From: Candidatus Latescibacterota bacterium
GTDB lineage: Bacteria > Latescibacterota > UBA2968 > GCA-2709665
NCBI GenBank assembly: GCA_963667175.2
Contig: CAXXXF010000017.1
Coordinates: forward strand, 39,044 to 103,043
Length of the DNA: 64,000 bases
Direction of reading: 5' to 3'
The notes under the pieces are model-generated. The model had not been told where the DNA came from. It saw only the letters and a list, made by a program, of their open reading frames with translations, and searched no databases. This document shows, one piece after another, positions 43,470 through 44,227 of this stretch. Each line of letters opens with the position of its first letter. Position 1 is the first letter of the stretch. The position numbers were made by a program, and so were the translations under genes.

Positions 43470-44227
43470 GTAGAGTCGGGATGTGGCGCGGTGGTTTAGG
43501 AGTGGCCTATCTGTTTCCGCCCCTTTCGTCTGGCGGTGCCTCAATAGCCGCTCCGTGCTCCGTTTCCACATCCCGCTCGTCGAACCGGACGTGCGGATTT
43601 CCCGCATCCGGCTCTCCGACGGACGTCGCCTTCAGGCACACGCTGCCCGCACTGCCCGGACAGCTTCACCTGAAACCCAAGCTTGCTCTGGAGTCGCCTC
43701 ATCTACTTTTAGAGGAGGTAATAGGCTTGCGCCACTCTCCCGACCGTTGTCCCCTTCACAAGCACATCCGAAGTCAGGCCCCTTCCCTCCACCGGCATTA
43801 CCCGGCTTCACGGGTACTACGAGCCTGTCCGCCACCCCATACGGCCCGGCCTGTCCCTCACGGGCGTCCGGTTGGTGTCTATACACCACCGCTGGGGCTT
43901 CCCGTGTTGCGTCGGATCTCCTTGTATACGTGCCTTCGCCATTACCCCGGCGGGACCGTTGGATGCACGCGTTGCTCTCTTTTTCCAACGACGGCGGCCT
44001 TCCCCGATCCATGGGCGGGTCGGCTCCCGCATTACCTTTTTCGAGGCCTGCTCAGCGTTCACTGCACGTTTCGGCCCGCATACTCGCCGAGTCGCCTTGC
44101 GACCCTTTACACCGGAGGCTTCGGAGATGTCGTTACCTTCACCCCCGCTCCGGTTGCTACCGACTGTAGCAACATTTGTCGGGTGGGACTCTCACCCACT
44201 GGAGTTCCGCGCCTTTTCACGGCGCAC
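43470..44227 (-). mobile_element. ORF-less group II intron, copy 1 (758 nt)
   Basis: The minus strand starts GTGCGCC. Domain V GAGCCGGATGCGGGAAATCCGCACGTCCGGTTC lies at 43582-43614. It ends CTAC. Only a remnant of the peptide that typically leads into intron RT ORFs (VVPVKPGNAGGGKGPDF) is present. Confidence 0.85.

Follow-up and report, generated by a model that had tools for sequence, protein, structure and literature searches.

A group II intron without an open reading frame in a defence island of a Candidatus Latescibacterota bacterium: ribozyme structure, exon recognition and insertion site

Introduction

The stretch of DNA that we have analysed comprises 64,000 nucleotides (nt) of contig CAXXXF010000017.1, from a Candidatus Latescibacterota bacterium, and is referred to throughout as “the window”. 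In the low-GC part of the window, an island of defence genes includes two genes of a type I restriction-modification system, an hsdR-like restriction subunit and a methylase-specificity fusion (hsdM/S), both encoded on the plus strand; the non-coding DNA between them holds, on the minus strand, a group II intron without an open reading frame (ORF), which we refer to as “copy A”. A second ORF-less copy, “copy B”, is located further along the same island. Copy A is a complete, structurally intact group II intron that has no reverse-transcriptase (RT) gene; it is likely, on the analysis presented here, to be a non-autonomous retroelement of a IIB-like lineage, which would be spliced and mobilised in trans by the RT-maturase of a relative.

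In the following, we introduce the boundaries of the intron and its genomic setting, its ribozyme structure, the elements that read its exons, the repeated motif in which it is inserted and the remnant of its lost ORF; we then compare it with its relatives and with known introns, and weigh the explanations that may account for it.

Results and discussion

Boundaries and genomic setting of the intron

Direct reading of the minus strand from position 44227 to position 43470 gives a total of 758 nt, with GTGCGCC as the first bases and CTCTAC as the last. A scan of the whole window against Rfam, with the gathering thresholds as cut-off, has placed two matches inside these limits: RF02003 (group-II-D1D4-4) at 44201-44064 with 102.3 bits (cut-off 49), corresponding to domains I to IV (D1-D4), and RF00029 (Intron_gpII) at 43616-43470 with 46.4 bits (cut-off 40), corresponding to domains V and VI (D5-D6). 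The group II boundary consensus sequences, GUGYG at the 5' end and AY at the 3' end, are found as GUGCG (44227-44223) and as ...CUCUAC (43475-43470), respectively; GUGCG is near-invariant across 24 aligned relatives, with GUACG in one of them and the row of copy B being one nucleotide short in this alignment. The similarity of copy A to copy B, to an ORF-less relative on a Bradyrhizobium plasmid and to full-length relatives begins and ends exactly at the ends of the intron and thus, the 758 nt constitute a discrete element, not a piece of a larger one.

An RT-maturase ORF in D4 is what distinguishes an autonomous mobile intron, and copy A has none: a tblastn search of the 64-kb window, with the intron-encoded protein (IEP) of the closest relative as the query, has returned no match, and no Pfam domain occurs in the ORFs that overlap copy A or copy B on either strand. 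The stop codon of the hsdR-like gene (ORF 40913-43441) is located 28 nt ahead of the 3' end of copy A. Because the intron lies within non-coding DNA and is antisense to both hsdR and hsdM/S, it interrupts no gene, and it is probably neutral for the restriction-modification system. The coordinates of all features are collected in Table 1.

A preliminary description of this locus, made from the letters alone, had already pointed to a 758-nt element running from GTGCGCC to CUAC on the minus strand, to a near-textbook domain V with the AGC triad, to the lack of an RT ORF and to a position 28 nt after the hsdR stop, between hsdR and hsdM in a defence island. These observations are all in agreement with the direct reading, the RF00029 match (D5 at 43614-43582), the searches for the IEP and for Pfam domains, and the Pfam and PADLOC assignments of the neighbouring genes. 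The covariance-model search and the folding that it had proposed also favour the intron: both covariance models score above their gathering thresholds, the comparative folds of D1-D3 and of D5-D6 are recovered with compensatory changes, and the possibility that the 758 nt could be part of a larger, unrelated element is answered by the exact edges that copy A shares with copy B and with the relatives. To this description we add that the element is not unique in the window, since copy B (57385-58145) is a second ORF-less copy, with Rfam matches at 58119-57981 (100.7 bits) and 57532-57454 (40.9 bits); the alignment of the two copies has a mean column identity of 93%, including approximately 70 nt of unrelated flanks.

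Table 1. Positions of the intron copies, their structural elements, the insertion motif and the adjacent genes in the window. A slash within a sequence marks the point of insertion; EBS, exon-binding site; IBS, intron-binding site.
Feature	Position	Strand	Basis or remark
Copy A, ORF-less group II intron, 758 nt, 5' GUGCG to 3' UAC	43470..44227	minus	Rfam matches, exact edges
5' splice-site consensus GUGCG	44223..44227	minus	direct reading
Candidate EBS2 AAGGU, variable D1 bulge	44034..44038	minus	putative AGG/CCU pairing (3 bp) at exon -14 to -12
EBS1 CAUGGAU, loop of hairpin 44019-44003	44007..44013	minus	7/7 Watson-Crick with 5' exon end AUCCAUG
EBS3 A, pairs with first 3'-exon base U	43942	minus	column scan
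Domain IV remnant, ~200 nt; conserved basal hairpin and ~9 relic IEP-start codons, remainder of ORF deleted	43615..43814	minus	
Domain V with AGC triad, 2-nt bulge and GAAAU loop; GAGCCGGAUGCGGGAAAUCCGCACGUCCGGUUC (GAGCCGGATGCGGGAAATCCGCACGTCCGGTTC)	43582..43614	minus	RF00029 alignment
Domain VI, 106 nt, with ~79-nt extension (43565-43487)	43473..43578	minus	covariation in 20 relatives
5' exon, minus copy of the motif, ending in IBS1 AUCCAUG (...TTATCCTGTCCATCCTGTTCATCCATG)	44228..44262	minus	
3' exon start TAAGTT, IBS3 = T, 3' end of the split motif	43464..43469	minus	
Intact insertion site, target form CCTGTTCATCCATG/TAAGTT			
39-nt motif, plus copies	40854-40892, 44828-44866, 59768-59806, 59902-59940, 61255-61293, 61896-61934, 62552-62590	+	
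hsdR-like type I restriction subunit, convergent with copy A	40913..43441	+	Pfam ResIII and HSDR_N; PADLOC REase_I E = 6.7e-54
Type I methylase-specificity fusion (hsdM/S)	44879..47464	+	Pfam N6_Mtase and Methylase_S; PADLOC MTase_I 6.1e-94, Specificity_I 3.1e-50
Copy B, ORF-less group II intron, 761 nt	57385..58145	minus	Rfam matches and alignment to copy A
Copy B EBS1 UGUCAGC	57930-57924	minus	
Copy B EBS3 U	57859	minus	
Copy B domain V	57530-57498	minus	
Copy B branch-point A	57391	minus	

Structure of the ribozyme

When the complete intron is folded from its single sequence by minimum free energy (z = -3.5), D5 and portions of D1 are obtained, but the overall architecture is unreliable; for this reason, we have used comparative folding, based on 24 relatives for D1-D3 and on 20 relatives for D5-D6. 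The consensus fold of D1-D3 contains 126 pairs, 75 of which show compensatory double changes. Copy A forms 123 of the 126 pairs and copy B forms 124, and the numbers are similar in two RT-bearing, full-length relatives from another Latescibacterota genome, L015 (123) and L048 (125). The substitutions that separate copies A and B are found in 15 of the 252 paired columns (6%) vs 28 of the 207 unpaired ones (13.5%), and, among the 12 pairs that have changed between the copies, seven still pair in both.

D1 is large, at approximately 320 nt. The 13 pairs of D5 are essentially invariant across the 20 relatives, while the basal helix of D6 and its extension both covary. The branch point is a bulged adenosine at position 43476, 7 nt from the 3' splice site, and the corresponding alignment column (169) is an unpaired A in all 20 relatives. 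The long extension of D6 is also present in RT-bearing relatives on Planctomyces and Buttiauxella plasmids and therefore, it marks the lineage rather than the ORF-less state. As far as can be judged from these alignments, copy A, copy B and L096, an ORF-less copy from a second Latescibacterota genome, retain every catalytic and exon-binding element.

Recognition of the exons

An unbiased scan of all alignment columns against all exon positions, made over 23 independent introns, has recovered EBS1: in 16-22 of the 23, its columns are paired with positions -1 to -7 of the exon. The EBS1 loop is also the sharpest block of difference between the two copies of the window, CAUGGAU in copy A vs UGUCAGC in copy B; the latter, a retargeted EBS1, forms seven of seven pairs with its own 5' exon, GCUGACA. 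Seven of seven positions likewise pair in L015 and in L048, with one G-U pair in L048.

EBS3, through which the first nucleotide of the 3' exon is read by domain I, is a trait of IIB and IIC introns. A single column of the alignment, at position 43942 in copy A, is Watson-Crick complementary to the first base of the 3' exon in 16 of 16 introns, with all four bases being used; copy A has an A here that contacts U, and copy B has a U that contacts A. A different location for EBS3, at the A/U difference in GCCG(A/U)AACG, had been considered and was dropped, as the unbiased scan pointed to 43942. The placement of the intron as IIB-like, as opposed to IIA, is drawn from this EBS3; with regard to a named class (D, E, F or g1-g4), two traits are available, namely that the IEP of the relatives lacks the DNA-binding/endonuclease (D/En) domain and that the RNA matches Rfam D1D4-4.

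The candidate EBS2 is a variable bulge of D1, which across the relatives often offers 3-5 bp to exon positions -10 to -15; the signal is weak (319 of 5000 permutations), and only columns 238 and 240, against positions -11 and -13, stand out in the column scan. The loop of the variable hairpin at 43880-43875 was also tried as EBS2 and rejected, as it has no complementarity to the exons. For both copies, the cognate matches of EBS1 and EBS3 are as expected for insertion by reverse splicing.

The repeated motif as insertion site

Copy A splits one copy of a 39-nt motif, GTGYTTTTATCCTGTYCATCCTGTCYATCCATG/TAAGTT, which is composed of three direct 9-nt sub-repeats (ATCCTGTYC, ATCCTGTCY and ATCCATGTA). 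The motif occurs in seven copies on the plus strand and in one copy on the minus strand, the latter being that of copy A, and all of them are located in the low-GC island at 40-64 kb; its 14-nt core is found eight times, with up to two mismatches, vs 0.36 occurrences expected by chance. When the exons of copy A are joined, the sequence ...CATCCATG/TAAGTT is restored, as it is seen in intact copies at 44853-44866 and 59927-59940 (within the motifs at 44828-44866 and 59902-59940); the intron thus divides a dispersed repeat directly before TAAGTT, as had been proposed in the preliminary description.

The full-length relative L015 is inserted in the same motif, at the same position, in another genome, at ...TTATCCTGTTTATCCTGTATATCCATG/TAAGTTCC (i.e. 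...ATCCATG/TAAGTTCC); the 3' exon, TAAGTTCC, is identical at copy A and at L015, and L015 is located 27 nt from the stop codon of a convergent gene, compared with 28 nt for copy A. Because a full-length intron occupies the same position of the motif, we regard the island repeat as the homing site of the lineage.

The motif is usually found 18-45 nt upstream of a start codon on the same strand; hsdM/S has an intact copy of its own, at 44828-44866. It is also carried by contigs of the IMG/VR database (L125, L127 and L128), often as inverted or divergent pairs, and one of these copies is situated 22 nt ahead of a ribosome-binding site and a start codon; the motif could be a promoter, an operator or a leader. 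Two other interpretations of the motif have been set aside. It is not an integron attC site, as its copies in the window consist of three direct 9-mers, without the inverted R''/R' structure; and the small charged ORFs that begin from the ATG of the motif on the opposite strand (MDGQDEQDK..., 18, 30 and 54 amino acids) have not been counted as genes, as they vary in length and are unconserved beyond the motif. In addition, the motif copies at 40857-40889 and 44225-44257 constitute an inverted repeat of 33 nt (91% complementary) on either side of the whole hsdR gene and copy A; the segment between them might be invertible or mobile as a module, or the arrangement might simply result from the chance orientation of the motifs.

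The remnant of domain IV

The comparison of copy A with L015 delimits the lost part of the intron: positions 1-452 and 608-758 of copy A are 94.5% and 98.7% identical to L015, and positions 453-607 have no significant match to the L015 ORF, except for a stretch of 29 nt. This stretch corresponds to the Shine-Dalgarno region followed by approximately nine relic codons, S-L-L-P-P-L-K-V-D, vs M-S-L-R-P-P-D-K-V at the start of the L015 IEP, with seven of nine residues matched (SL-PP-KV) and with the ATG start codon changed to GCA. In copy B, the relic meets a stop after three codons. A relic of the C-terminus of the IEP in the D4 remnant is suggestive. A blastn search among plasmids gives a similar picture, with RT-bearing relatives aligning to positions 1-458/514 and 605-758, and one ORF-less relative aligning from end to end.

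Copy A, copy B and L096 have the same D4 remnant with the same breakpoints and therefore, a single deletion gave rise to a lineage that is present in two or more species. The sequence comparisons indicate that nearly the whole ORF was removed from D4 by an old internal deletion.

At the base of D4, a hairpin (GCCGG-GUAAYG-CCGGY) covaries among the relatives and its nucleotides are highly conserved. The preliminary description had taken the stretch “VVPVKPGNAGGGKGPDF” for the surviving lead-in to the IEP, a reading that we reject: the stretch is located upstream of the true relic, its frame runs into a stop in L015, its frame relative to the IEP varies among the relatives, and the annotated ORF of one of them (L003) uses yet another frame. 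Since the frames differ and the hairpin covaries, what is conserved in “VVPVKPGNAGGGKGPDF” is RNA at the base of D4.

Relatives and prevalence

The exact 35-mer of D5 has been searched for in one genome per species, with at least 118 matching stretches; those listed come from Acidobacteriota, Planctomycetota, Latescibacterota, Gemmatimonadota, Proteobacteria and other groups. The closest relatives among the matches listed are L015 and L048, two full-length introns of 1979 nt in one Candidatus Latescibacterota metagenome-assembled genome (MAG), whose IEP consists of RVT_1 and GIIM, i.e. of RT and maturase, with no endonuclease domain. The ORF-less L096 (2337-3092, minus strand) is located in a second Latescibacterota MAG; its D1 contains an additional hairpin of approximately 30 nt, and its D6 extension is missing the internal hairpin.

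In order to classify the copies by ORF status, each D5 match has been paired with the nearest upstream match to a D1 profile. Among the matches listed, 35 copies have an ORF-sized D4 and 33 are ORF-less, a tally that is weighted by genomes with several copies; 31 ORF-less copies, in at least 12 genomes, are located outside the window, and 57 further D5 matches are left unclassified, being cut by block ends or having no 5' part. The size of D4 varies between host groups, which implies that the ORF has been lost repeatedly and independently. The preliminary statement that ORF-less introns are uncommon in bacteria is accurate in general, although such introns are well documented (PMC2882425, PMC8919778): in a survey of RefSeq, they account for 888 of 13,041 bacterial group II introns (PMC8919778). 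It does not extend to this clade, where ORF-less forms are frequent among the matches listed.

Some members of the clade show additional arrangements. ORF-less copies occur as head-to-tail tandem arrays without a spacer, namely three copies in a Bryobacterales MAG at a spacing of 791-792 nt (L113, 5029-7402, minus strand) and two in a Gammaproteobacteria MAG at a spacing of 953 nt (L100, 1479-3384, minus strand); reverse splicing that took place repeatedly behind one and the same IBS1 may account for the arrays. In a Vicinamibacterales MAG, the distance from the 5' part of the ribozyme to D5 is approximately 5.2 kb (L012, 1776-7150; L093, 988-6137), which suggests that these introns carry an additional insertion in D4, either a twintron or an insertion sequence.

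Comparison with known introns

The closest parallel is found in Thermosynechococcus elongatus, where the TeI3 introns have lost their ORF through a single deletion, have diverged into EBS families and are mobilised by the IEPs of TeI4 drivers (Mohr et al. 2010, PMC2882425). The present lineage is like TeI3 in that its ORF-less copies share a single internal deletion of D4 with common breakpoints and a relic of the ORF start (copy A, copy B and L096); in that several copies occur per genome, with diverged EBS that fit the exons of each copy (EBS1 and EBS3 in copies A and B); and in its mostly intergenic insertion, its intact ribozyme and the existence of a closely related full-length intron. 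It differs in three respects: TeI3/TeI4 are chloroplast-like IIB1 introns with an endonuclease domain in the IEP, whereas the IEP of the present relatives has RT and maturase only; the D6 extension of approximately 79 nt belongs to the present lineage; and the driver IEP of TeI3 has been demonstrated experimentally, whereas here a driver is presumed, with the nearest full-length copy being located in another genome.

An IEP with RT and maturase but without D/En, together with an EBS3 that reads the 3' exon, is shared with RmInt1 (bacterial class D) and with classes E and F, members of which are found in rhizobial, Burkholderia-type and many other replicons; unlike them, copy A has no IEP whatsoever. 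Introns of class IIC, including the IIC-attC introns (PMC7923331, PMC1702495), resemble copy A in using a short multi-copy target motif, and in lying opposite to the transcription of their neighbours, just past a convergent gene. The target of copy A, however, is read by an EBS1 of 7 bp, instead of a stem-loop plus 3-4 bp, and consists of three direct 9-nt sub-repeats instead of an attC-like hairpin. Nor is the intron itself of class IIC: the compact architecture of that class, as described in PMC11754743 and PMC7923331, combines a short EBS1, no EBS2 and a small D1, as opposed to the 7-bp EBS1 and the D1 of approximately 320 nt that are found here.

Two ORF-less systems remain for comparison. 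The hydrolytic endonucleolytic ribozymes (HYERs; Liu et al. 2024, as described in PMC11754743) are also bacterial group II RNAs with an intact catalytic core and without an IEP ORF; they are described there as compact and of class IIC, whereas copy A is 758 nt long, with a D1 that is large, a D6 that is extended and a candidate EBS2, and, as a mobile intron would be, it is located at the exon junction that is cognate to it. Because HYERs are, on this account, compact IIC elements and D1 is large here, the intron is not a HYER. C.te.I1 of Clostridium tetani (PMC4424553) is likewise a bacterial group II intron that lacks an ORF and whose ribozyme appears to be complete; it self-splices robustly in a genome without an IEP-related gene, whereas copy A has a near-identical RT-bearing relative in a related organism.

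Mobility of the intron and alternative explanations

The likely reading of copy A as a non-autonomous element, served in trans by a related RT-maturase, is based on the features that parallel TeI3/TeI4, as well as on the observation that bacterial introns without an ORF are almost always accompanied by related introns that encode an IEP (PMC4424553). According to this reading, the minus-strand transcript of copy A would fold and leave its exons as a lariat, assisted by the RT-maturase that a full-length relative at another locus of the genome would provide in trans; the ribonucleoprotein so formed would reverse-splice into DNA sites recognised through EBS1 (7 bp) and EBS3 (1 bp), together with a short EBS2, and the synthesis of cDNA would be primed at replication forks, as is expected from an IEP that, in the relatives, has no endonuclease. 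Both insertions are probably neutral for the restriction-modification genes and for the operon of the cyclic oligonucleotide-based antiphage signalling system (CBASS) that precedes copy B.

Several observations weigh against this reading. An IEP that acts in trans in this organism is assumed, and none is encoded within the 64-kb window; the evidence for a minus-strand promoter consists of one weak sigma-70-like match (44532-44505); and the pairing of EBS2 with IBS2 amounts to a weak 3-4 bp (permutation p ~0.06). Six of the motif copies on the plus strand have both IBS1 ATCCATG and IBS3 T, yet are empty, from which it follows that mobility is rare, strand-restricted or extinct; the GC skew has given no usable replication direction for judging a strand bias, and a scan of metagenome contigs for occupied junctions, CCTGTNNATCCATG/GTGCGCC, has returned three chance matches and no introns. 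Lastly, the EBS1 of L096 is identical to that of copy B, yet mismatched to its own 5' exon and therefore, some copies of the lineage are located at non-cognate sites.

The empty sites and the missing IEP are also what would be seen if copies A and B were immobile fossils, i.e. remnants of past invasions that neither splice nor move and that look intact because of their recent origin; the non-coding position of both copies, where the host would exert no selection for splicing, and the early stop in the IEP relic of copy B are in line with this. We nevertheless consider it unlikely, as the two copies have diverged by approximately 7% and still keep 123-124 of 126 pairs, with substitutions that avoid the paired positions and with seven of 12 changed pairs remaining intact. 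Moreover, the copies share the D4 remnant, but differ in EBS1 and EBS3, each fitting its own exons; since both are at their own cognate sites despite the common deletion, retargeting and insertion took place after the loss of the ORF. Another explanation would dispense with the protein altogether: copy A could be a self-splicing ribozyme or could, like the HYERs, act as an RNA-guided endonuclease that hydrolyses DNA, possibly recruited by the defence island. ORF-less introns with protein-free activity are known (C.te.I1, PMC4424553; HYER, cited in PMC11754743), the ribozyme core is intact, both copies are located within the defence island, and ORF-less forms are frequent in the clade among the matches listed. 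This explanation is nonetheless very unlikely in view of the compact IIC form described for HYERs in PMC11754743, vs a D1 of approximately 320 nt here, of the cognate exon junctions at which both copies sit, like mobile introns, and of the near-identical relative that bears an RT; the introns are also antisense to the neighbouring defence genes, and nothing ties them to these genes in function.

The position of copy A, convergent with hsdR and 28 nt past its stop codon, in a motif that is elsewhere found 18-45 nt upstream of start codons, raises the further idea of a regulatory by-product, in which the highly structured antisense insert would mainly insulate the restriction-modification genes transcriptionally or act on them as an antisense element. 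We regard this as very improbable: the split copy of the motif is oriented opposite to the genes, hsdM/S keeps an intact copy of its own, and copy B and the relatives occur in unrelated contexts. The broader conjecture that the endonuclease-less, long-D6 clade repeatedly yields ORF-less derivatives, which in uncultured bacteria of soils and sediments would equal the RT-bearing form in frequency, and that some of these, including copies A and B, are IEP-independent ribozymes or RNA-guided DNA-targeting elements aimed at a regulatory-looking, multi-copy motif, instead of being carried passively by a driver intron, is a highly improbable one in our judgement.

Group II introns that have lost their ORF are already known among the mobile elements of bacteria; new are the host lineage, the clade itself, long in D6 and devoid of an endonuclease, the EBS code as mapped here, the use of a multi-copy motif as target and the high share of ORF-less copies among the members of this clade in MAGs. 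With the likely reading of copy A as a non-autonomous element, the lineage is a well-defined one outside the cyanobacteria, in a little-studied, Latescibacterota-like phylum, with fully mapped exon-binding sites and with a multi-copy intergenic motif as its homing site. The tally among the matches listed suggests that, in long-read MAGs, ORF-less derivatives are far from rare within this clade, which bears on older estimates of such introns as exceptional in bacteria. A compact ribozyme of 758 nt with a target code of 7+1 nt and a candidate IEP partner could also be tried as a small targetron or as a HYER-like scaffold.

The surroundings of the introns in the island

The GC content of the window drops at approximately 40 kb, from 0.60-0.64 (positions 1-40000) to 0.48-0.58 (approximately 40000-64000), and the first defence genes and motif copies appear at this point; the GC content of the introns themselves, approximately 61-63%, resembles that of the core genome rather than that of the island. 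A tRNA gene with a long variable arm (23846-23930, plus strand, Rfam 49.1 bits) does not adjoin the boundary of the island, and is followed by a gene for a sigma factor of the extracytoplasmic function type, fused to tetratricopeptide repeats (23972-25441).

Copy B is located approximately 700 nt downstream of the CBASS-like operon (53768-56684), on the opposite strand; the operon encodes an oligonucleotide cyclase (PADLOC 1.2e-74), a TRIP13 ATPase (1.1e-100) and a two-transmembrane effector, and a gene for an AbiLi-like ATPase follows (59978-61126). The flanks of copy B contain a 33-nt direct repeat, 82% identical (57334-57366 and 58155-58187); the end of one repeat copy is separated from the 5' splice site by 9 nt, and the start of the other is located 18 nt past the 3' splice site. 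Elsewhere in the island, a PARIS-like gene for an ATPase of the AriA/AriAB type is apparently split by an insertion sequence (48348-48905 / 48930-50168, minus strand / 50505-51704), with an AAA_15 N-terminal fragment and an AAA_21/AriAB C-terminal fragment flanking an rve-integrase gene on the opposite strand, and a 300-nt direct repeat, 81% identical, is found at 52143-52442 and 61408-61707.

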